From Candidatus Multivoradales bacterium (GTDB taxonomy: Bacteria; Acidobacteriota; Thermoanaerobaculia; Multivoradales; Multivoraceae): 64,000 nucleotides of DNA. The DNA lies in assembly GCA_965223325.1 (NCBI GenBank), contig CBDCWI010000002.1:736001-800000 (forward strand). Reading direction: 5' to 3'. The position numbers were made by a program, and so were the translations under genes. The notes under the pieces are model-generated. The model had not been told where the DNA came from. It saw only the letters and a list, made by a program, of their open reading frames with translations, and did no database searches. Of this stretch, positions 9,532 through 59,832 are shown piece by piece. Numbering within the stretch: the first letter of the stretch is position 1; the number at the start of each line of letters is the position of its first letter.

Positions 9532-10617
9532 TCAGTCGTCTGAGGTGCTACCCGACTTCTTCGCCAGCGCCTCACTCTCGAGCAGGCGAGCACCGCGCAG
9601 AATGCCGTCCATGGCGTAGTTGCCTTCGTGGCAGGCGTACTCGTAGACCTTCTCATCGCTGGTGCGCCAGACGTACTCACCACTCCACGGCGCCGTCCAC
9701 ACCGAGGGGTCGTCCATGGTGAAGCGATAGAGCAGATTGCCGTCCTCGAGGCGCGAGAAGCGCTCGGTCACAACCGCGTTCTCGGAGCCCCCACGCATCA
9801 GAGCGTCGGGCCGGAAGTTGGTGGTCTCGACGACCAGCGTGTCGCCTTCCCACCAACCAATCGAGTCACCGAGCCACGAAAGCGTCGCAGCCGGCGCGTG
9901 CTCCGAGTTCATGCGCACGATGCGTGCGTCGTGCACCATCTCGATGAGAATCATCACATGCGTATCGGTCTGGATGATGCGCTTGTAGTTGTTGTAGAGG
10001 CTCGGGAATGTCGGTGCAGCACCCGTGAAACCGAGAAGACAACGCTCGGCGATGCCCAGAGACTCTGGACCATCGTAGGGCCCCGGACCATCGAGCTCGA
10101 GCCACCAGGCGGTGCCATCGTTGGGGCGCCGGAGCTTGGCACGCTCCGCCATCCGCTCGATGGCAGCCTCGGTCGGCGGTGGCATGCGGCCGTCTTTCGG
10201 GTCGGTGATGATCGAGGTGCGGAACTTGCCGTCGACGGAGAACACCTCGGTTCCACGATCGGTCCAGAAGTTGTTGTAGCCGCCCACGTTGCCCGCACCA
10301 CTGACCTCGCGTGCCTCGTCGTCGTATCCGATCGGTGGCGCACCGCCAGCGGGAGGTGCTTCGTCTACCGGGCCGCGATTGCGCTCACGCCGAAGAACCC
10401 GCTGGCGCTCCTTCTCCATGATCTCTTCGGCCGCCTCGCGGGTGAGCTCGAGGTTGGTGCCGAACTCTCTGGGACGCTGAAGCGGCGTGAGGGTCGAGAC
10501 GTCGTAGGTGCCCGAGAGATCAGGACGCCCGTCGGCGGAGCGTGTGCCGGCCTCTTGCGCCTGACCAGGGAGTGCGAGCAAAAGGCCAGCGACCAGAACC
10601 ATCAAGGTGCGAAACAT
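9532..10617 (-). CDS. secreted conserved hypothetical protein (YEYACHEGN family)
   Basis: Signal peptide; GRPDLSG, ERC, GDSIGWWEGDTLVVET and YEYACHEGNY motifs; coding-like codon usage. Confidence 0.8.
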   Translation of the reverse strand: MFRTLMVLVAGLLLALPGQAQEAGTRSADGRPDLSGTYDVSTLTPLQRPREFGTNLELTREAAEEIMEKERQRVLRRERNRGPVDEAPPAGGAPPIGYDDEAREVSGAGNVGGYNNFWTDRGTEVFSVDGKFRTSIITDPKDGRMPPPTEAAIERMAERAKLRRPNDGTAWWLELDGPGPYDGPESLGIAERCLLGFTGAAPTFPSLYNNYKRIIQTDTHVMILIEMVHDARIVRMNSEHAPAATLSWLGDSIGWWEGDTLVVETTNFRPDALMRGGSENAVVTERFSRLEDGNLLYRFTMDDPSVWTAPWSGEYVWRTSDEKVYEYACHEGNYAMDGILRGARLLESEALAKKSGSTSDD

Positions 10618-10704
10618 GTCAAGACCTCCGGTGTTTCGCTCATCCTAGACCAACAGTCATCAACGAGCCGAAGCGCTTCCACTTTGGCTCTTCAAGCAAC
10701 AGAA

Positions 10705-10745
10705 AACCCCGACCCGCGCCGACGAATCGCGGGCGAATCGGGGTT
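10705..10745 (-). terminator. probable intrinsic terminator after the OmpA-domain gene
   Basis: AACCCCGA/TCGGGGTT and CCCGCG/CGCGGG nested stems with a short T run on the minus strand. Confidence 0.5.
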
Positions 10746-10769
10746 CCGTTGAAAAGACGGCGAAAGCCG

Positions 10770-11327
10770 TCAGCGACGGATGTGGACCTCGACGCGGCGC
10801 GCCTCTTCGAGATCACCACTGCCGGTGGTGAAGAGGGGCTTGCGCAAGTCGATACGGTCGGCCGGGACCCCGAGCGCGATGAGCTTGGAGCGCACCGAGA
10901 GCGCCCGGTTGCGCGCCAGCTCGTCGTTATGGGCGGCGTCACCGGTCGGGTCGTGATAGCCCGAGACTGCGGTGATGACGTCGTCGTGTTCGCCCATGTA
11001 GGCAACGATTTCCGCCAGCGTCGTGTCGACATCAGCCGGCAGGCTGAACTCGTCGACGTCGAAGTAGACGCGCGCCGTCGGAACCTCCTCGACATCCACC
11101 AGCCCGCGCAGCTTGTCAACGAACGACGGGCCTTCAGGCTCCGGTTCGGGAGCCGGCACGACGGCCGGTGCGGGCGCCGCGGCGACCGCGGTAGTGCCAC
11201 AGGTGGGACAGTTGCGGCCGCCTGGGCCGTGACCCATGAGCCAGAGGGCGAGGGTTAGTAGCGCCAGAAGAATGGCGACGGTGAGCCAGATGGTCCTGAA
11301 GGAACTGCCTTCTTGATGGTTACTCAT
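10770..11327 (-). CDS. OmpA-like peptidoglycan-binding domain protein with N-terminal TM and Pro/Ala linker
   Basis: VYFDV, SGYHDPTGDAAHNDELARNRA and EARRVEV. Confidence 0.88.
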   Translation of the reverse strand: MSNHQEGSSFRTIWLTVAILLALLTLALWLMGHGPGGRNCPTCGTTAVAAAPAPAVVPAPEPEPEGPSFVDKLRGLVDVEEVPTARVYFDVDEFSLPADVDTTLAEIVAYMGEHDDVITAVSGYHDPTGDAAHNDELARNRALSVRSKLIALGVPADRIDLRKPLFTTGSGDLEEARRVEVHIRR

Positions 11328-11345
11328 TTTTTTCCTTCCTAGCGA

Positions 11346-12029
11346 TCAGCGGCGCACGCCGCCATCGAGCACATCCTGGAGGATCTTCAGAGCCTTCCAC
11401 CGGTTGTAGGCCGCGAGCATCGCCTGCTCCGGCCACGTACCTGGATCCGCGAGTTTGAAGTTCGGTCCCGCGGCGTCGAGAACCCGCTGCAAGCGTGGAA
11501 TCTCGGCCCGGGAAAGTTCCATGAACGTCTTCACACCGTCCTCGTTGAGGAGCTCCTCGATCTTCGGGCCGATTCCCTCGATGATCTTGAGGTCATCGGG
11601 GCCCATGATCTCGAAGCCAGCAGCACGCGCCGCGGCCAGGTCGATGGTGGGTCCGAGCTCAAACGCCTTGAGGCGCGCTTCGAGCGCGGAGATTCTCGAC
11701 AGGTGCGCCGGGTTGTCGACCTCGACGGTCTTCTCGACGATCTTCTCAACCGTCTGCGGAGCACGTGCCTCGAGTTCGGCGATCTTGGCGACGAGCGCCG
11801 GGTTGTCGACCTCGACGACCTTCTCGACCTCGACGATCTTCTCAACGGTGTCGGGCGTACGAGCCTCGAGCTCGGCGATCTTCGCAATGTGGGCAGGGTT
11901 GTCGATCTCGACCTTTCGCTCGACGATCTTCTCCACCTCTATTTGGGGTCGCTTCAGCAAGCCGCTGAGCAACCACGCACCGAGCGCACCAGCAAGGTAC
12001 GGCCAGAGTGCGCAAAGAAAGGAAGCCAT
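11346..12029 (-). CDS. membrane-anchored protein with three KIVE..VEVDNP repeats and a C-terminal helix-hairpin-helix (DUF4332-like) domain
   Basis: N-terminal TM; three repeats of about 30 aa; DDLKIIEGIGPKIEELL...DPGTWPEQA; GGAGG SD before ATG 12029. Confidence 0.8.
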   Translation of the reverse strand: MASFLCALWPYLAGALGAWLLSGLLKRPQIEVEKIVERKVEIDNPAHIAKIAELEARTPDTVEKIVEVEKVVEVDNPALVAKIAELEARAPQTVEKIVEKTVEVDNPAHLSRISALEARLKAFELGPTIDLAAARAAGFEIMGPDDLKIIEGIGPKIEELLNEDGVKTFMELSRAEIPRLQRVLDAAGPNFKLADPGTWPEQAMLAAYNRWKALKILQDVLDGGVRR

Positions 12030-12396
12030 AAATCCTCCATAGGACCCGTCACGATGGACGCACGGCGTTCGCTGCCGGTGAGCCCTCCGATCAGTCCTGG
12101 TCATAGGTTTTGGGGAAACAGACCTCGATGGTAGAGGGGAGCGGTACCCGAGGGCAAGCAAGCATGCTGCAGCCGGCCGCAGAGACAACCGCCCGAGGGC
12201 CGCAAGTCCTTTGGCCCCTTTGGCTTCGTGAGATCGAGCCGCCCATCTCCAGAGGTCAAGCAGAACCCCTCGTGTCAGGCAACAACCCTCACAGGCCGCC
12301 GGCAGCGGGAGTGCCCCAGCAAGGTTTGAGCCGCGTTTCGCGTCCTCTCAAGCGAGAGCCCAATGACGGGGAACCTCAAACAAGGGAGAACACGAC

Positions 12397-37154: not shown

Positions 37155-37802
37155 GACTGGGCGCAAACGCCGACCAGGAAGCCTCCCCTCTCGATCTGCT
37201 AGTCTCCCGGTGGCAGGAGCATCTATCTCCACCGAACACTGGAAGTCCTTGCTTTCTAGCAACTTGCAGCTCGAGAGGAGTCCGCCACCTGGCGGTGGCT
37301 TCTGCAGAATCGACATGCAACGCGGCCGCCCACCCAGCGACCGACTCGACTTTTCACATCCTCCCCGGAGACCGACGGGGGTTCAAAACCAGACAGCATT
37401 CGACGATGAGCCGGGTCCAGAGCGCGTCGCGCTCCCCGACTCTCCAGACTGCAGTCGCGCAATCGGACCCATCGGTCAACCAACGCCCGGTCATTCAGAA
37501 AGAGACCGCAGGCGACCGGAACGAGGAAATCCGACGCTCGCGTAAGGACGCTCTTTGCGAGACCTCTTTGCAAACGGAACGCGGTCACAAGCAGCACGCC
37601 GGTCGAAGGCCGCAAGCGACGCCGCCTGCCCCGCACCTCCCCCCTGTTCGGGGATCATCCCGTTCAGAGACTGGAGGGCCGGCTCGCCGCATGGCTGCCA
37701 ACCCTGATTCAGTTTGAAGTCCCGGTGCCAGTCGCACCGAGATGAAACTCGCAGTTCAATCTGTCCCTACCGCGCCTCGGTCACCAAGAGGACAACCATC
37801 CA

Positions 37803-40121
37803 GTGACCACCAAGCGCATGCTCATCAACGCGCGCAACCCAGCAGAACTGCGGGTCGCGTTGGTCAGCGACAAAACACTCGACGACCTCAAGGTCGACGT
37901 TGCCGAACGCGGACTGACCCGCGGCAACATCTACTACGGCGTTATCTCCAACGTTCAACCGAGCCTCAACGCCGCCTTCATAGACTATGGGGCGGAACGC
38001 AACGGCTTCTTGACGATTCAAGATGTTGTCCCCGAGGCCTACCACAAGAAGTACACCAAGAAGAGCCGGCCGAAGATCGAGGAGGTCCTAGAAGACAGGA
38101 AATCCCTCCTGGTTCAGGTGTCGCGCGAACCCGAGGGCCAGAAGGGTTCGGCTCTGACGACCAACCTGTCGCTGGCCGGCCGCTACCTGGTGCTCACCCC
38201 CTACGACTCGACGCGCGGCGTTTCGCGCAAGGTCGACAGCGACGAAACCCGGCGCGCACTCAAGAAGCTCGCCACCTCACTCGACGTACCCGATGGCGCC
38301 GGCGTCATCGTACGCACCAACGCACTCGATCAGAACAAGACCACCCTCAACCGCGACCTCAATGCGCTCCTGCGCCTGTGGAAGCGCATCTCGACCGAGG
38401 CCGAACGCAACGGTCAGGTGCGGCTCCTCTACTCGGATCAAGACATCGTCTTGCAAGCCCTGCGCGACTATCTCGACACCTCGGTCCAGGAAGTCCTGGT
38501 CGACGAAGTCAACGCCTTCAACAAGGCGCAGGAGTACATTCGCGCCTTCATGCCACGGTCGCGTGTCCAGCTGACGTTCTACGAGGACCGGGCGCCTCTC
38601 TTCGCGCGCTACGACCTCGAGTCGCAGATCGATCGCATCTTTCAACGCACCGCACCTCTGCCGTCGGGCGGCTCGATCGTCATCGACCGCACCGAAGCGT
38701 TGACCGCCATTGACGTCAACTCGGGGCGTTCGACGAGGGCATCGAGCCAGGAAGAGACCGCGGTCAACACGAACCTCGAAGCCGCCGCCGAGGTCGCACG
38801 ACAGCTGCGACTGCGCGACATCGGCGGCCTGGTGGTCGTCGACTTCATCGACATGCGGGCGCGCAAGAACCAGCGACGGGTCGAACGCGCGCTGATTGAC
38901 GCCCTCAAGCCCGACAAGGCACGCGCCACGGTCGGCAGAACCAGCTCCAACGGTCTCGTCGAAGTCAATCGCCAGCGCATCCACCAGGCAATCCAGGTAC
39001 GCACTCAGCGTGTGTGCCCCAACTGCGCCGGCACCGGGCGCGTGCCGAGCCCCGACATCGTCTCACTCCACATCCTGCGCGAGCTGCAAGCACGCTGCCA
39101 GGACGGTTCGATCGAGCGGGTGCGCATTCGTTTGCACCCCGAACTGGCAGACGCCTTCCAGAACATGCGACGCACCGAACTCGCCACCATCGAGAAGGAG
39201 CTCGACGTACGCATCGAGATCCTCTCTTCGATGAAGCTCGGTCCAACCGAACGCGACATCGACTGGTACGCGCGAGCAGCCCTGCGGCGCGGACCCGTCG
39301 TTCGAACCGCGGCGGAGGCAGCCGTTGCCAACATCTCCGAGGCAGCGGATGACGCACGCAGCTCGCGCTCGCGGCCTGCCAAGAAGTCCAAGACCACCAA
39401 GAAACGCAAGACGCGAAAACGACGCACCGACGCGAAGTCGAAGAACGAGGGTACCGAGGCAACCAAGGCCAAGGGCAGTGACGGCGAAGACAACGAGGAC
39501 GAGGAAGCGCCACGGAGGCGGACTCGTCGCCGACGTTTGCGCGGTGGGCGAAGCAGGTCACGGCGTAGCAAGAGCGACGAAACCCCAACCGATGATGATG
39601 CGATCGAGGCAGCAGCGGATGACGTCGCCGAGGGCGGGGACGGCGAGACGGATAGGGACGGTGACGAAAAGCCGGCCCGGCGCCGGCGCCGTTCCCGCGG
39701 TGGACGAGGGCGCGGTCGCAGGGCGTCCGAGAGCGGAGACCCGGGTGACAGCGACGACGGCGCGGCCACCAGCGATGCGTCACCTTCAGCAAACGGGGAT
39801 GAAAAGGAACGCCCCGCGCGGCGTCGGCGCACGCGCGGCGGTCGCGGTCGTGGACGACGCGTTGCGGCGAGCGACGCGGAAGAATCGAGCGCAACGAGCG
39901 GTGACGACAAGCGAGCGGAAGCCGACTCCGACGGTCCTGAGAAACCCGCTCGCTCCAGGAGAAAGACGCGGCGGACCAGAGCTGGCGCTTCCGACACCTC
40001 CGAGAAGAGCGGAGCTGAGACGGGCGCGATCGAGGCGCCTCCCAGGGCCGCCGCCAGCACCGACAGCGGTGCCGGGCGTAGCTGGGCACGCGCCGAGCCA
40101 CCACCCGAAGACCAGAGCTGA
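37803..40121 (+). CDS. rne: ribonuclease E/G family with long disordered C-terminal region
   Basis: GNIY, AAFIDYG, IDVNSG, TNLEAA, LRDIGGLVVVDFIDM and CPNCAGTG Zn-link; Arg/Asp-Glu block tail. Confidence 0.93.
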   Translation: MTTKRMLINARNPAELRVALVSDKTLDDLKVDVAERGLTRGNIYYGVISNVQPSLNAAFIDYGAERNGFLTIQDVVPEAYHKKYTKKSRPKIEEVLEDRKSLLVQVSREPEGQKGSALTTNLSLAGRYLVLTPYDSTRGVSRKVDSDETRRALKKLATSLDVPDGAGVIVRTNALDQNKTTLNRDLNALLRLWKRISTEAERNGQVRLLYSDQDIVLQALRDYLDTSVQEVLVDEVNAFNKAQEYIRAFMPRSRVQLTFYEDRAPLFARYDLESQIDRIFQRTAPLPSGGSIVIDRTEALTAIDVNSGRSTRASSQEETAVNTNLEAAAEVARQLRLRDIGGLVVVDFIDMRARKNQRRVERALIDALKPDKARATVGRTSSNGLVEVNRQRIHQAIQVRTQRVCPNCAGTGRVPSPDIVSLHILRELQARCQDGSIERVRIRLHPELADAFQNMRRTELATIEKELDVRIEILSSMKLGPTERDIDWYARAALRRGPVVRTAAEAAVANISEAADDARSSRSRPAKKSKTTKKRKTRKRRTDAKSKNEGTEATKAKGSDGEDNEDEEAPRRRTRRRRLRGGRSRSRRSKSDETPTDDDAIEAAADDVAEGGDGETDRDGDEKPARRRRRSRGGRGRGRRASESGDPGDSDDGAATSDASPSANGDEKERPARRRRTRGGRGRGRRVAASDAEESSATSGDDKRAEADSDGPEKPARSRRKTRRTRAGASDTSEKSGAETGAIEAPPRAAASTDSGAGRSWARAEPPPEDQS

Positions 40122-40135
40122 AGGGGTCCGCAAGG

Positions 40136-40179
40136 TTCAAATAGAACGGCCCCGCCGCCTGTCTAGGCTGCGGGGCCGT
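40136..40179. terminator. terminator hairpin between rne and the convergent minus-strand RNA
   Basis: ACGGCCCCGC (40146-40155)/GCGGGGCCGT (40170-40179) stem; T-rich tail (TCTATTT) on the minus strand. Confidence 0.75.
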
Positions 40180-40360
40180 GTGCCTGACGATTGGACGTCA
40201 GGGCTTGGCTGCCCGGGAGCTTGGCGGCAGGGCCTTTCGGTCAGAGCGACGGAAAGAGCGCTGCGGAGCCAGGTCGCGAGCTGTGGTTGACTCGAACTGG
40301 TGGCGATGGGTAACCCTTTGAAGCTACGCCACGGCCACCGAATCGGAGCCCGTAGCTACC

Positions 40361-40405
40361 CTACGGGATCGCCACCTCGTTCAAGTCGCTATAAGAATGT
40401 TGCAC
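40361..40405 (-). CDS. putative 14-aa micropeptide MQHSYSDLNEVAIP
   Basis: AAGGAGGT at 40412-40419, 6-nt spacer, GTG at 40405 and TAG at 40361-40363. Confidence 0.45.
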   Translation of the reverse strand: MQHSYSDLNEVAIP

Positions 40406-40544
40406 TCGACCACCTCCTTCATGGGGCGCGTCTCAGGTGTAGCGGGTCCCACCCCGCCCGATTCCAGGCGCCGCCCGAAGCGGTCCAGAACCGCCGCCAC
40501 CGCTGCCCCAGGGAACCTGGTCGGTGACGGATGACGATGACGAC

Positions 40545-40573
40545 ATTGTCTTCATTCGATAGCCTTCTGTCAA
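40545..40573 (-). promoter_or_regulatory. sigma70-type promoter
   Basis: TTGACA (40568-40573), 17-nt spacer, GACAAT (40545-40550). Confidence 0.75.
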
Positions 40574-40598
40574 TAACGGGGAAGAGAGAGAATCAAGA

Positions 40599-41840
40599 AT
40601 GAGCAAGCGACTCGGCATTGGCTTCGTTGGCAGCGGCTTTATCACCAAGTTCCACATCCGTTCCTTCGAGAGCGTGCGCTCGGCGGACGTCCTGGGGGTC
40701 TGGAGCCCCAACCACGAGCACGCCAGCGAGGCCGCTCAGTTGGCTAGTTCACTGGGAGTCGGCGAAGCCAGGGCCTTCTCGTCCCTGCGTGAAATGGCGA
40801 TGGCGCCGGAGATTGACGCCATCTGGCTGTGCGGGCCGAACCACCAACGCGTCCAGAACATGGAAGAGGTCGCGCTGTCACAAGAGGACGGCGCCCGCTT
40901 GATCGGGGTGGCGTGTGAGAAACCGCTCGGGCGGAATGTCGCTGAAGCCCGAAGGATGCTCGAGTTGGTGCGCGAGGCGGATCTTCTCGACGGCTACCTC
41001 GAGAACCAGGTCTTCTCTCCCGCCGTGGTGCGCGGGCACGAGTTGGCCTGGAGTCGCGGCGCCGCAACCAGTGGCCGCCCGTATCTGGCGCGCGCCGCCG
41101 AAGAGCACGCCGGCCCGCACGCTGCCTGGTTCTGGCAGGGTGACCTGCAAGGTGGCGGGGTGCTCAACGACATGATGTGTCACTCGGTTGAGGTGGCGCG
41201 CTACCTCCTCACCGCGCCCGGCGCGCCGCGCAACAGCATCACGCCGCGGCGCGTCAACGCTCAGATCCATTGCCTGAAATGGCAACGGCCCGCCTACGCG
41301 CAAGACCTCGCCGAGCGATTCGGTTCCAGCGTCGACTACCAGCAACGTCCGTCGGAAGACTTCGCGCGGGTGCTCGTCGAATACACCGGTGAGGAGGGCG
41401 AGCCATTGATCGTCGAGGCGACAACCTCCTGGAACTACGTCGGGCCCGGGCTGCGCCTGTCGATGGAGCTCCTCGGGCCCGAGTACTCGATGCAGGCGTC
41501 GAGTCTCGACACCGAGCTGCGGCTGTTTCTCGGGCGTGACCTCCAGCAGGCAACCGGGGAGGACCTGGTCGAGAAACAGAACGCCGAAACCGGGCTCATG
41601 CCCGTCTTGCCCGATGAGTCCGGCGCCTATGGCTACGACGCCGAGAACCGCCACATGGTGCAAAGCTTCCTCGCTCGGCAACGCCCTCGCGAGACGTTCG
41701 AGGACGGCCTTGCGGTCACCGAGCTCCTGATGGCCGCCTACAAGAGCGCCGAAGAGGGACGGCGGATCGATCTTCCCGTCGACGATCTCGAGGGCTTCCG
41801 TCCCGCAGTCGCCCAGGGCACATGGAAGCCCGGCAACTGA
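40599..41840 (+). CDS. Gfo/Idh/MocA family oxidoreductase
   Basis: GFVGSGFI, ACEKPL and GGGVLNDMMCH. Confidence 0.92.
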   Translation: MSKRLGIGFVGSGFITKFHIRSFESVRSADVLGVWSPNHEHASEAAQLASSLGVGEARAFSSLREMAMAPEIDAIWLCGPNHQRVQNMEEVALSQEDGARLIGVACEKPLGRNVAEARRMLELVREADLLDGYLENQVFSPAVVRGHELAWSRGAATSGRPYLARAAEEHAGPHAAWFWQGDLQGGGVLNDMMCHSVEVARYLLTAPGAPRNSITPRRVNAQIHCLKWQRPAYAQDLAERFGSSVDYQQRPSEDFARVLVEYTGEEGEPLIVEATTSWNYVGPGLRLSMELLGPEYSMQASSLDTELRLFLGRDLQQATGEDLVEKQNAETGLMPVLPDESGAYGYDAENRHMVQSFLARQRPRETFEDGLAVTELLMAAYKSAEEGRRIDLPVDDLEGFRPAVAQGTWKPGN

Positions 41841-48901: not shown

Positions 48902-50320
48902 GCCCCCCGCCCCCCGGAGCCAGTCGGGGGGACTTTCCCGCCACAATCCATGGGCCGCGCCGCGCTGGCCGGTCTGGCCAGTCGGGGGGACTTTTCGGCC
49001 GCGGGTGGCGGTTCGCGAAAGCTCGTATTTCGGCCCGGTTTTTCCTTCCTGTAGGGCTGCGCAGGCGTTTTGCGTCCCATGTCACATGGGAGCAAAACCG
49101 AGATACGTACCAAACTCCGACCGCGGGTGGGAACCAGTCATGCTCACCGCCCGCATTACGAACGGCACCTTCCTGCTCAAGCCCGACTCTGAGCAGCGAA
49201 ACATCATCAACGGCATCATCGGCCGCGCACAGCGCAAGACCGAGACCCTTATCTACTGCGTCGACTACCAGGTCAATCATCATCACTTCCTCGTCGGCGT
49301 CCGCGACGCCCAGCAGATGGCGGACTTCATGTACCGCGTCCAGCACCAGACGAGCGTCGAGATCCGCATCCGTCACGGCTGGAAGGGCCCGAAGTGGGAA
49401 AGGCCCTACCGACCCTGCTTCACCGGCCGCGACCCGGCCGATGTCGTCAAGCGCTTCCGCTATATCCTGGCGCAGGGGTGTGCCGCAGGCCTGGTGTCCT
49501 CACCTCTGAAGTGGCCAGGTGTGACCGTCGCCCGGGCCCTGTGGGAGGGGAAGCTCGAGCTCGAAGGCGAGTGGGTCGACCACACGGCGTACAGCCGGGC
49601 GAAACGGACGAAGGCGGGTCGTCGGCTGACGAAGAAAGACTTCACCAAGAAAGAGACGGTGGTTCTGTCCAAGCTACCGGGCATGGAAGACCTGAGCGAT
49701 GAGGCCTACTGCGAGTGGGGGCGCGAGATGATTCGCGGTATCGAGCGAGAGACTCTAGCGCGCCACCAGCGAGAGAAAACGAAGCCGCTCGGCCAGTGGA
49801 AGATCGCTCGCATGAGTCCCTTGAGGACTCCGGTGAAGATGGCTCTCGGGCCTTGTCCGCTGGTGATCGCCAGCAACAAGGAGGAGCAGCAACGGCTCTT
49901 GTCTGCCTTTGACTGGGTGTGGAGGGCGCACCGGCTGGCACGGGACCGTCAGCGGGCGGGCGAGCGCGATGTGGTGTTTCCTGAAGGTACGTTTCCGAGT
50001 CCCTTGCCTTTCGAAACGGTGCAGGCGCTACGTGCCGGGCCCTGAGTTAGAGCGCTAGTCAGGTAGGCGAAGAGGGACCGCCCAGGAGGCCCGTGGAGAT
50101 GCGGGCCCGGCGGAGCTGTGTCTGCGTGGGGGGAAGAGTCGTGCAAGGTGGCTGGCGCAGCGTTTGGGAGGGCCAAAAGGGGGTCCTGAGGGGCAAATCG
50201 GGTGGGCAGCGGCACCGCCAGGCGCCGCCGCAGCCGCAGCGCCCGGAAACTCCCCCCGACTGTTGGGGGGTGGTTCGGGGTTCGGAAAGTCCCCCCGAAT
50301 GGGATGGCGGGGCGGGGGGC
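48902..50320 (+). mobile_element. Y1/HUH transposase locus bounded by 37-bp imperfect terminal inverted repeats
   Basis: 48902-48938 versus the reverse complement of 50284-50320 match at 31/37; subterminal copies at 48977-48995 and 50245-50262; inserted between convergent genes; no TSD seen. Confidence 0.75.
49086..50045 (+). CDS. REP-associated tyrosine transposase-like (RAYT/TnpA Y1, HUH) protein
   Basis: LTARI, NHHHFLV (HUH), W..PY, RYILAQ (catalytic Tyr) and AGLV..P..WPG; C-terminal FPEGTF. Confidence 0.85.
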   Translation: MGAKPRYVPNSDRGWEPVMLTARITNGTFLLKPDSEQRNIINGIIGRAQRKTETLIYCVDYQVNHHHFLVGVRDAQQMADFMYRVQHQTSVEIRIRHGWKGPKWERPYRPCFTGRDPADVVKRFRYILAQGCAAGLVSSPLKWPGVTVARALWEGKLELEGEWVDHTAYSRAKRTKAGRRLTKKDFTKKETVVLSKLPGMEDLSDEAYCEWGREMIRGIERETLARHQREKTKPLGQWKIARMSPLRTPVKMALGPCPLVIASNKEEQQRLLSAFDWVWRAHRLARDRQRAGERDVVFPEGTFPSPLPFETVQALRAGP

Positions 50321-58023: not shown

Positions 58024-58323
58024 ATGGAGATTCTTCCTCTCATCATTCAGCTCATCAGTGGTGCTGTCGGTGGCAACATCGCCGGTTCACTGATGAAGAA
58101 CCTCTCGCTCGGCTCACTCGGTAACTCGCTCGCCGGCATCGTTGGTGGCGGCCTGGGCGGCCAGCTGCTCTCGATCCTCGGTGTAGCCACCGCGACCGGT
58201 GGCGTCGACATCGCCTCGATCATTGGCAGCCTTGCCGGTGGCGGCGTTGGCGGCGGTGTGCTGATGGCGATCGTCGGCCTGATCAAGAACCTGCTCGCGG
58301 GATCCAGCCAGGCCGCACGCTAA
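58024..58323 (+). CDS. small glycine-rich membrane protein (conserved hypothetical)
   Basis: AGGAG SD; LIIQLISGAVGGN...GGGVGGGVL glycine zippers. Confidence 0.8.
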   Translation: MEILPLIIQLISGAVGGNIAGSLMKNLSLGSLGNSLAGIVGGGLGGQLLSILGVATATGGVDIASIIGSLAGGGVGGGVLMAIVGLIKNLLAGSSQAAR

Positions 58324-58449
58324 GCGTCGGGTTCAAAGACGATTCGGCGGCGTGCAGCCACACCGCCGAGGCCACGGAGAGGGCTTCCAGAAATGGAAGC
58401 CCTCTTTCTCTTTGACCGGTCGCAACGAGCAACCGAGAGACACACTCGC

Positions 58450-59832
58450 TCAGTCGAGATCGGGAACTGCTTCGAACCAGCCTCCGAGCTCGTGCAGCAA
58501 GCGGAAGCCCAGGGCCAGCAGTCGATCCCCGGCACCGACCTCCACCACGGTCCCTTCCTTGGCGCCGTAGCCACCTTCGGCGGCCGCAGCCAGGGTTGGG
58601 AAGTAGCCGAGCTCGCCGTTCGCATAGCCCACGAACAAGGTTGGCATCAGGCTCTCGCGACGCAGGCGTTGGCCGAACTCGACGAAGAACTCGCCCGGGA
58701 AACTCACCACCCCTACCTGCACGGGCGCCTGGCGACTACCGAGAACCAGCGCCATCACCTCGGCTTGCTGCTCGCGCTCGAAACGCGCCGCATAGTAGGC
58801 CAGAAGGCGCTCGGCGCCGACGCGCTCGTAGGCCGCGACGACGGCAGGGTCGTCGTAGGACCACCGGGCACTCATGGAGATCTCGCGGCGCTCGGCCGCG
58901 AGCGAACCCGGGTCGGCAAACTCGAGCCGTTCGCGCACCGTCAAGACCTCGCGAGCCACGGCTCGCCCCAGCCGCTCGACCTGAAGGAAGGCGCCGTCGG
59001 TCGGCGCGGTCTTGTCCCAGAACGGATTGATATCGCCCGCTGCGCCCTGAAGAAACATCGCCACGCCGCCGATCTCACCTTCGATCGCCGCCTGCATCGC
59101 GCCCGGCCAGTCGGCCGAGATCTCGAGGTTCAGTGGGCCGAGGACCACCGGGTGACAGGGGTAGTTGACGACCGTAGCCAGCGGCTCACCCGAAGTGTCG
59201 TTGATCGCCAGAACCAGGACGGTTTCATCGACCGGCTCGGTCGCGAGACGCCCGCGGTTGCCCCAACGCATCTCGACCGAGCGATCGGGCAGCACGTGGC
59301 GCCGGTTGTGGCACTCACGGACCTTTCCCTCGCCGACCGCCAGGCGAGCGGGGCGCAGTCGCCCTGCCGCCTCAACGATGGCCTCGGCGACCTGTTTCTC
59401 GGTCGCCGTCAGCCAGGCCTCGTGATGGGGGTCGTCGAAGGTCGGGGTGGAGTGACTGTGCGATGCCGAGAGCAAGACGGCGCCCCAGCCGAGTGATTCT
59501 TCAACCAACGTGCGGATGCGCCGGGTCTGGGCCTTTCGAATCGAACCCAGATCGAGACTGACCAGCGCCGCTTCGGTCTCGCCATCGGACAACACCAGGA
59601 CCTTGGCGTACAACCGGTCATGCACTCCCTGGGAAACGGCATCGCCCCGCGCCCCGTAGCCGTACATGCGCCCGCCAACGGGAGGCGTGATGTCGATGGC
59701 GATCGCAGCAGCACGGAGCTCTGCAGCGACACCAGGCGTCTCGACCAGCCAGATCAAGAGCGCAAACAGAGCCGCCCGCACCAGGATCGTCTGCCAGCCG
59801 TCGCTCCAGAGGCACTGGCGCGAAGCCATCAC
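58450..59832 (-). CDS. neutral/alkaline ceramidase N-terminal-domain protein
   Basis: DITPP, VHDRLYA, ASHSHS, NYPCHP, SADWPG, GAAGDINP and PGE.F. Confidence 0.85.
   Translation of the reverse strand: MMASRQCLWSDGWQTILVRAALFALLIWLVETPGVAAELRAAAIAIDITPPVGGRMYGYGARGDAVSQGVHDRLYAKVLVLSDGETEAALVSLDLGSIRKAQTRRIRTLVEESLGWGAVLLSASHSHSTPTFDDPHHEAWLTATEKQVAEAIVEAAGRLRPARLAVGEGKVRECHNRRHVLPDRSVEMRWGNRGRLATEPVDETVLVLAINDTSGEPLATVVNYPCHPVVLGPLNLEISADWPGAMQAAIEGEIGGVAMFLQGAAGDINPFWDKTAPTDGAFLQVERLGRAVAREVLTVRERLEFADPGSLAAERREISMSARWSYDDPAVVAAYERVGAERLLAYYAARFEREQQAEVMALVLGSRQAPVQVGVVSFPGEFFVEFGQRLRRESLMPTLFVGYANGELGYFPTLAAAAEGGYGAKEGTVVEVGAGDRLLALGFRLLHELGGWFEAVPDLD

Follow-up and report, generated by a model that had tools for sequence, protein, structure and literature searches.

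In this study, we examined the 477-nt gap (40122-40598) between the genes for an RNase E/G and a Gfo/Idh/MocA oxidoreductase in a window of 64 kb, by which we mean the whole stretch of DNA that was analysed, from an uncultured acidobacterium of the class Thermoanaerobaculia, and we tentatively suggest that a stand-alone transcription unit, non-coding and specific to the lineage, lies on the minus strand of this gap. Among the explanations considered this appears to be the likeliest, because a promoter match, the polarity of a terminator-like tail and the slightly better minus-strand fold of a central rod agree with one another, and because nothing in the gap looks coding. The original prediction had described a stand-alone small RNA (sRNA) at this place; the promoter-like site, the direction of the tail and the non-coding character of the gap speak for this proposal, while most of the length of the putative RNA is not clearly structured, which speaks against it.

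The gap and its flanking genes

The RNase E/G gene (rne; 37803-40121, plus strand) encodes a protein of 772 aa, which matches the Pfam family RNase_E_G with an E value of 2e-94, and is convergent with the putative transcript. On the other side of the gap, the gene for the Gfo/Idh/MocA oxidoreductase (40599-41840, plus strand), referred to below as the Gfo gene, is divergent from the promoter-like site on the minus strand. The positions and strands of these genes bear out the predicted location between rne and the Gfo gene and the convergent arrangement with rne.

Two further observations concern rne itself. The C-terminal third of the RNase E protein (39300-40121) is a low-complexity tail rich in Arg, Asp, Glu and Ser with repeated RRRxRGGRGRGRR-like runs, and codon-position GC periodicity is almost nil in the DNA encoding this tail. 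Upstream of rne there is a second gap of 648 nt (37155-37802), presumably a long rne leader. The 405-nt windows starting at 37396-37801 in this leader are among the most stable of the window for their GC content; the leader matches no Rfam family, and it may serve in autoregulation as a type of leader for which no model exists as yet.

A promoter-like site and a terminator-like hairpin

A promoter-like site of the form TTGACA-N17-GACAAT is located on the minus strand and directed into the gap. Its -35 hexamer TTGACA (40568-40573) matches the consensus at 6/6 positions and its -10 hexamer GACAAT (40545-40550) at 4/6, with a spacer of 17 nt, so that the site scores 10/12 against the sigma-70 consensus, a value that reflects consensus match only. 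When the region 39500-41200 was scanned, one site was found, compared with 0.1 expected in shuffled sequences (per 1.7 kb). With the same scoring rules, five sites with a score of at least 9/12 were found on both strands of the whole 64 kb (128 kb of strand), and the site at 40573-40545 was the sole one to reach 10/12. Hence the predicted promoter sequence was confirmed and is the best sigma-70-like match in the window. Judged by consensus match, the gap therefore has a candidate promoter of its own directed into it, as would a stand-alone sRNA gene, and from the spacing transcription is predicted to start near A40538. On the plus strand, no promoter-like site in the gap scores above 8/12.

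A terminator-like hairpin and its tail are found on the minus strand at 40138-40179. The stem consists of 10 bp plus 4 bp (arms 40179-40170 and 40155-40146; -31.8 kcal/mol with flanks), and its z-score is -5.08, with 0/200 shuffled sequences folding as well. On the minus strand the hairpin is followed by the tail UCUAUUUG, in which 5/8 residues are U and the U run is interrupted; the corresponding plus-strand tail is GUGUGCCU, and the U-rich tail is thus present on the minus strand only. The hairpin (40146-40179) was not flagged in a terminator scan, probably because its stem is interrupted, and classical hairpin-plus-U terminators occur elsewhere in the same window. The proposal of a minus-strand terminator about 400 nt from the promoter was accordingly upheld in part: the hairpin is strong and its tail U-rich, but the scan was silent. 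Judging from the fold and from a reading of the tail, we regard the hairpin as a putative terminator.

Elsewhere in the window, the two most stable local structures are located at 10643-10773 and 58304-58453. At each place, a long intergenic gap contains two or three perfect hairpins whose tails are rich in U, and these clusters are tandem intrinsic terminators.

Folding of the putative transcript

Folded as a 405-nt sequence, the minus strand reaches -198.7 kcal/mol (z -4.20; 0/100 shuffles) and the plus strand -192.2 kcal/mol (z -3.10; 1/100 shuffles). The minus-strand fold contains 14 G-U pairs among 137 pairs, compared with 6 among 136 in the plus-strand fold, and the preference for one strand depends on a small number of G-U pairs. 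In a native comparison using 405-nt tiles, 4 of 472 windows were equally or more stable for their GC content. Shuffling the sequence part by part revealed that structure above chance is confined to the central rod and the terminator hairpin. The earlier description of the interval as packed with stems was therefore an overstatement, as only these two elements, the rod being about 100 nt long, exceed chance.

The 5' third of the putative transcript (40394-40537, minus strand) is GC-rich and can form many alternative stems, with a stability at chance level. For the 5' 147 nt (40394-40540) the z-score is -0.62 and 53/200 shuffled sequences fold as well, so that the stems proposed for the 5' end do not rise above chance. 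Several of the proposed pairings are present as strings and are unused in the minimum-energy fold, namely GCGGT/ACCGC, AGCTACG/CGTAGCT, CTGCC/GGCAG and the CC-GAAA-GG element that had been read as a tetraloop. A linker (40388-40419, minus strand) follows, which holds AAGGAGGU (40419-40412) and the sole A/U-rich stretch, GCAACAUUCUUAUAGC; this stretch, at about 40388-40405, lies just 5' of the rod and is partly unpaired. Beyond the rod, the 3' region (40186-40282, minus strand) forms an irregular long hairpin and a CCUGACG/CGUCAGG hairpin. Of the stems predicted for the 3' end, the latter hairpin is indeed part of the fold, but the region as a whole (97 nt) is only marginally structured, with a z-score of -1.89 on the minus strand (6/200 shuffles) and -2.35 on the plus strand.

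The central rod (40289-40387, minus strand) is closed by a helix of 18 bp, made up of 9 + 9 bp with one G-U pair and a 2x1 internal loop. Its arms pair 40387-40379 with 40289-40297 and 40376-40368 with 40299-40307, exactly as the original prediction had stated, including the G-U pair that exists on the minus strand only, the plus strand having an A-C mismatch in its place. The pair probabilities in the arms are 0.85-1.0, and the interior of the rod is branched with competing pairings and hence ambiguous. The rod fold (40283-40393) has a z-score of -5.74 on the minus strand and -4.74 on the plus strand, with 0/200 shuffles as stable on each strand, and among 3195 native windows of 111 nt it ranks 4th on the minus and 12th on the plus strand. 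The three windows ranked above it on the minus strand fall in two spots, both of which are terminator-hairpin clusters; terminators aside, no structure in the 64 kb is therefore more stable than the rod.

As the rod folds well in both directions, the plus strand might be the functional one, in which case the rod would belong either to a long cis-regulatory 5' leader preceding the Gfo operon or to the 3' untranslated region of rne. The Gfo gene needs a promoter and a leader and is preceded by the gap, the plus-strand rod is more stable than all of its 200 shuffles, and the 3' part folds slightly better on the plus than on the minus strand. However, the gap has no plus-strand promoter-like site above the 8/12 level, 212 nt with chance-level structure (z -0.09) separate the rod from the Gfo start, and a reading of the sequence between the two revealed no hairpin with a U run. 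Moreover, no riboswitch or leader family was matched, and the lower rank of the rod on the plus strand, where an A-C mismatch takes the place of one pair of the helix, also argues against this explanation, which we consider highly improbable.

Relatives and synteny

Relatives were represented by 80 rne loci with 10-kb flanks, taken from a species-representative genome set. The best matches to the N-terminal 532 residues of RNase E are 54-68% identical and belong to metagenome-assembled genomes of Thermoanaerobaculia, and the set contains no relative closer than 68% RNase E identity. Within the 80 loci, the best blastn match to the gap had an E value of 0.012 over 41 nt and nhmmer returned nothing at E<=10. 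A single-sequence covariance model of the rod, searched against 1.34 Mb, recovered only the rod itself, the next best match having 15 bits and an E value of about 1, and there was no match to the gap in the plasmid and phage collections. The nhmmer and BLASTN search for homologues that had been suggested along with the original prediction thus yielded none in the 80 loci, but the same holds for a syntenic control: the rne leader (37155-37802) shows no nucleotide similarity to the sequences upstream of rne in these loci. This indicates that relatives with at most 68% RNase E identity are too distant for intergenic sequence to be recognised, and the missing homologues say little because the syntenic leader is equally undetectable in those relatives.

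At the level of gene order, the six closest loci (L044, L005, L003, L001, L004 and L002) share a gene of about 820 aa that is convergent with rne and 78-84% identical among them; the window lacks this gene. Conversely, none of the 80 rne loci contains the Gfo gene. The absence of the one gene here and of the other in the relatives together place the gap at a synteny break. Almost every relative has a different content after rne. In L004, rne is followed by a plain terminator in the orientation of rne, and in L005 a minus-oriented terminator, which lies directly after the rne stop codon, serves a convergent frame for a 72-aa Cys-rich peptide. This arrangement in L005 parallels the minus-strand terminator proposed for the gap and speaks in its favour. 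In L044, the closest relative, a DUF433 gene (11958-12197) follows rne.

Several features of these loci were noted in passing. In L002, a frame that by eye looks similar to the DUF433 gene of L044 was noted. The rne gene of L044 (9998-11937) is split into overlapping frames (9998-10546 and 10543-11937), which could be due to a frameshift or an assembly error. The 72-aa frame of L005 (12127-12342, minus strand) combines a leader rich in Lys with a Gly-Gly motif and a tail rich in Cys. No Pfam family was matched by this frame, which we take to resemble the precursor of a ribosomally made modified peptide. In L001 (2527-2725) and L003 (11975-12175), a nested palindrome of about 170-190 nt makes up the gap after rne; it consists of repeated hairpin modules, among them two copies of CCTGGGGTTNNAACCCCAGG, a 20-nt palindrome.

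Owing to its location at a synteny break, the gap could be filled with debris. According to this explanation no functional RNA exists: what fills the gap was left over at a rearrangement breakpoint, the promoter match is due to chance or gives rise only to pervasive transcription, the hairpin at 40146-40179 is the terminator of rne or a relic terminator of the convergent gene that relatives have after rne, and the rod is an inverted repeat that arose by chance or is decaying. The absence here of the convergent gene found in the six closest loci, the absence of the Gfo gene from the 80 loci and the variable content after rne in almost every relative are all in agreement with this idea, as are the two thirds of the putative RNA that are not significantly structured and the lack of homologues in the rne loci, plasmids and phages. 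More specifically, a -10 hexamer with 4/6 matches, a 5' part at chance level and a marginal 3' part count against a transcription unit. On the other hand, the single best promoter match in 64 kb is placed within one of the few intergenic gaps, and the rod is the most stable local non-terminator structure of the window. In addition, three independent features, namely the promoter match, the terminator tail and the slightly better rod, all favour the same strand. On balance, we regard this explanation, the main rival of a non-coding transcript, as somewhat unlikely.

Repeats and mobile elements

The window contains an ORF (49005-50042) with an IS200-like Y1 transposase domain (Pfam Y1_Tnp, E 6e-6). 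Within 48902-50320, a 37-nt inverted repeat surrounds this ORF, and a 15-mer is present next to it in four copies (two per side, in opposite orientation); we take this layout to be that of REP-associated tyrosine transposases. At another place, three tandem copies with a period of 90-96 nt and 67-100% identity to the reference copy (11674-11937) lie within a minus-strand ORF (11346-12188), for which only a weak helix-hairpin-helix match was obtained.

The 15-mer flanking the Y1 ORF has no copy in the gap, and the possibility that the rod is a REP of the local transposase was therefore rejected. In a more general form, the rod may be an element that acts at the DNA level or as a repeat, such as a palindromic extragenic repeat, a miniature mobile element or a binding site for a recombinase or another protein, with the promoter and terminator being unrelated to it. 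That palindromes occupy the same position in L001 and L003, that the Y1 gene with its inverted 15-mers shows this genome to host such elements, and that the rod folds well on both strands would all be consistent with this view. However, no second copy of the rod or of one of its arms is present in the 64 kb, which is the part of the genome searched, the rod is unlike the Y1-flanking repeats, and no target-site duplication was seen at its flanks by reading. Furthermore, the rod arms are not palindromic, in contrast to the L001 and L003 elements, a pattern that occurs in 2 of the 80 loci and at this position only. We therefore consider a DNA-level or repeat element improbable as an explanation for the rod.

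Coding potential of the gap

The longest frame contained in the gap has 75 aa and is on the plus strand; on the minus strand, a frame of 92 aa extends into the Gfo start. Nine stop-to-stop frames of the gap were compared with Pfam and NCBIfam and gave only sub-cut-off matches (E>=0.026), and the 75-aa frame has no homologue in a large protein set. The spread of GC content across codon positions is 0.04-0.09 in the gap, compared with 0.35-0.46 in the Gfo gene, and hence there is no periodicity in the gap. The earlier statement that the gap lacks a long ORF was borne out by these short frames without family match or periodicity, and in having no apparent protein-coding capacity the gap is like a stand-alone sRNA gene.

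It had also been proposed that the RNA may have a dual function. In this case the transcript would be a messenger for a small protein, encoded either by a 14-codon frame behind AAGGAGGU or by a 39-codon frame (GTG at 40500 to 40381). The former, which starts with a GTG at 40405 and ends at 40361, is the sole minus-strand frame preceded by a Shine-Dalgarno motif; AAGGAGGU is a perfect 8-nt Shine-Dalgarno-like sequence located 7 nt before the GTG in a partly unpaired region, and small genes are indeed found after rne in relatives (DUF433 in L044 and the 72-aa Cys-rich frame in L005). However, AGGAGG occurs 54 times in the 64-kb window and is followed by a start codon within 4-10 nt in 17 of these 54 cases, most of which open short frames. 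Such combinations are therefore common in this GC-rich window, the motif carries little weight, and we judged the 14-codon frame not to be significant as a gene. The 39-codon frame has no ribosome-binding motif and its 39-aa product no family match, nothing in the gap corresponds to the L005 peptide, and codon periodicity is lacking throughout. A ribosome-binding site combined with a conserved or family-matched frame, the signature of a small-protein or dual-function messenger, was not found in the gap; the dual-function proposal is therefore unsupported, and of all the explanations considered here a small-protein messenger seems to us the least credible.

Possible role of the putative transcript

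If an RNA is made at all from the proposed stand-alone unit, RNA polymerase carrying the housekeeping sigma factor would start near 40538 at the near-consensus promoter, continue for about 400 nt toward the end of rne and stop at the hairpin and U-rich tail at 40138-40179. The rod of about 100 nt (40289-40387) would form the stable core of this RNA and might serve as a nuclease-resistant or protein-binding module. The A/U-rich stretch at about 40388-40405 could be a site for cleavage by RNase E or for contact with a partner; a cut at this position would release a 3' fragment of about 250 nt that comprises the rod, the 3' hairpins and the terminator. Such an RNA may act in trans as a regulatory RNA.

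A more far-reaching proposal is that the unit is the first member seen of an undescribed class of structured RNAs of about 400 nt in the Thermoanaerobaculia, with expression driven by one of the region's strongest promoters and with its branched 100-nt rod as a specific module for binding protein or RNA. We think that this is unlikely to be the case. The unit might then be linked to RNA turnover, as suggested by its location where the RNase E gene ends and by its single A/U-rich entry site.

If real, the unit would be a new and apparently lineage-restricted intergenic sRNA gene with its own promoter and terminator, and as such a gene of a familiar kind. The Thermoanaerobaculia are known largely from metagenome-assembled genomes, and in the titles and abstract openings of the literature we found no transcript-level sRNA studies on this group. 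A real transcript would be among the few candidate regulatory RNAs in this little-studied lineage. The unit is a prediction from a single genome and bears on no long-standing question; its value is that it provides a concrete and cheap target for follow-up work.

Comparison with known RNAs and repeat elements

When the whole window was searched with Rfam 15 at gathering scores, no matches were obtained. With lax filters, the regions 39900-40800 and 40130-40545 gave matches of at most 19 bits (E>=0.14), mostly on the terminator hairpin and all far below threshold. This test spans RNase P, tmRNA, SRP, 6S, riboswitches, OLE, GOLLD, ROOL, HEARO and raiA. ARAGORN found no tRNA or tmRNA in the window, permuted forms included. 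The earlier view that the RNA is not a tmRNA, RNase P, SRP or 6S RNA or a riboswitch is consistent with these searches, and since there is no Rfam, tRNA or tmRNA match, it holds as far as Rfam 15 goes that this is not a known family. The rod domain likewise matches no described family.

Two other candidates were rejected. A tRNA-derived element or attachment site had been suggested by the T-loop-like sequence GTTCGAGTC; its flanks form no T arm, and the ARAGORN search was empty. An attC-like site of an integron was the second: as read by us, the arm ends are a poor fit to the R''/R' consensus of such sites, and a cassette context is lacking.

With REP/RAYT-type palindromic repeats the rod shares the property of being an inverted repeat after the end of a convergent gene. 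Unlike such repeats, it is present as a single copy in 64 kb and its arms are not self-palindromic, and it shows no similarity to the local Y1-flanking repeat family. A closer parallel in structure is provided by 6S RNA (RF00013) and other protein-binding rods, in which, as in the gap, a structured domain is enclosed by a long helix with nearly perfect pairing; abundant housekeeping RNAs in turn typically have a near-consensus promoter. However, the unit does not match the 6S model even at E<=10, the putative transcript is about twice as long as 6S RNA, and the rod has a branched junction in its interior rather than a large central bubble.

Among the stand-alone sRNAs of bacteria, which have their own sigma-70 promoter and an intrinsic terminator, those of the CsrB and RNAIII types are long examples with 350-500 nt. 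The unit differs from the described sRNA families in that it has no sequence or covariance match to any of them. In its overall organization, on the other hand, it resembles stand-alone sRNA genes: it is intergenic, extends over about 400 nt from a promoter-like site to a terminator-like hairpin with a U-rich tail, shows no coding signal and contains a stable internal stem-loop module.
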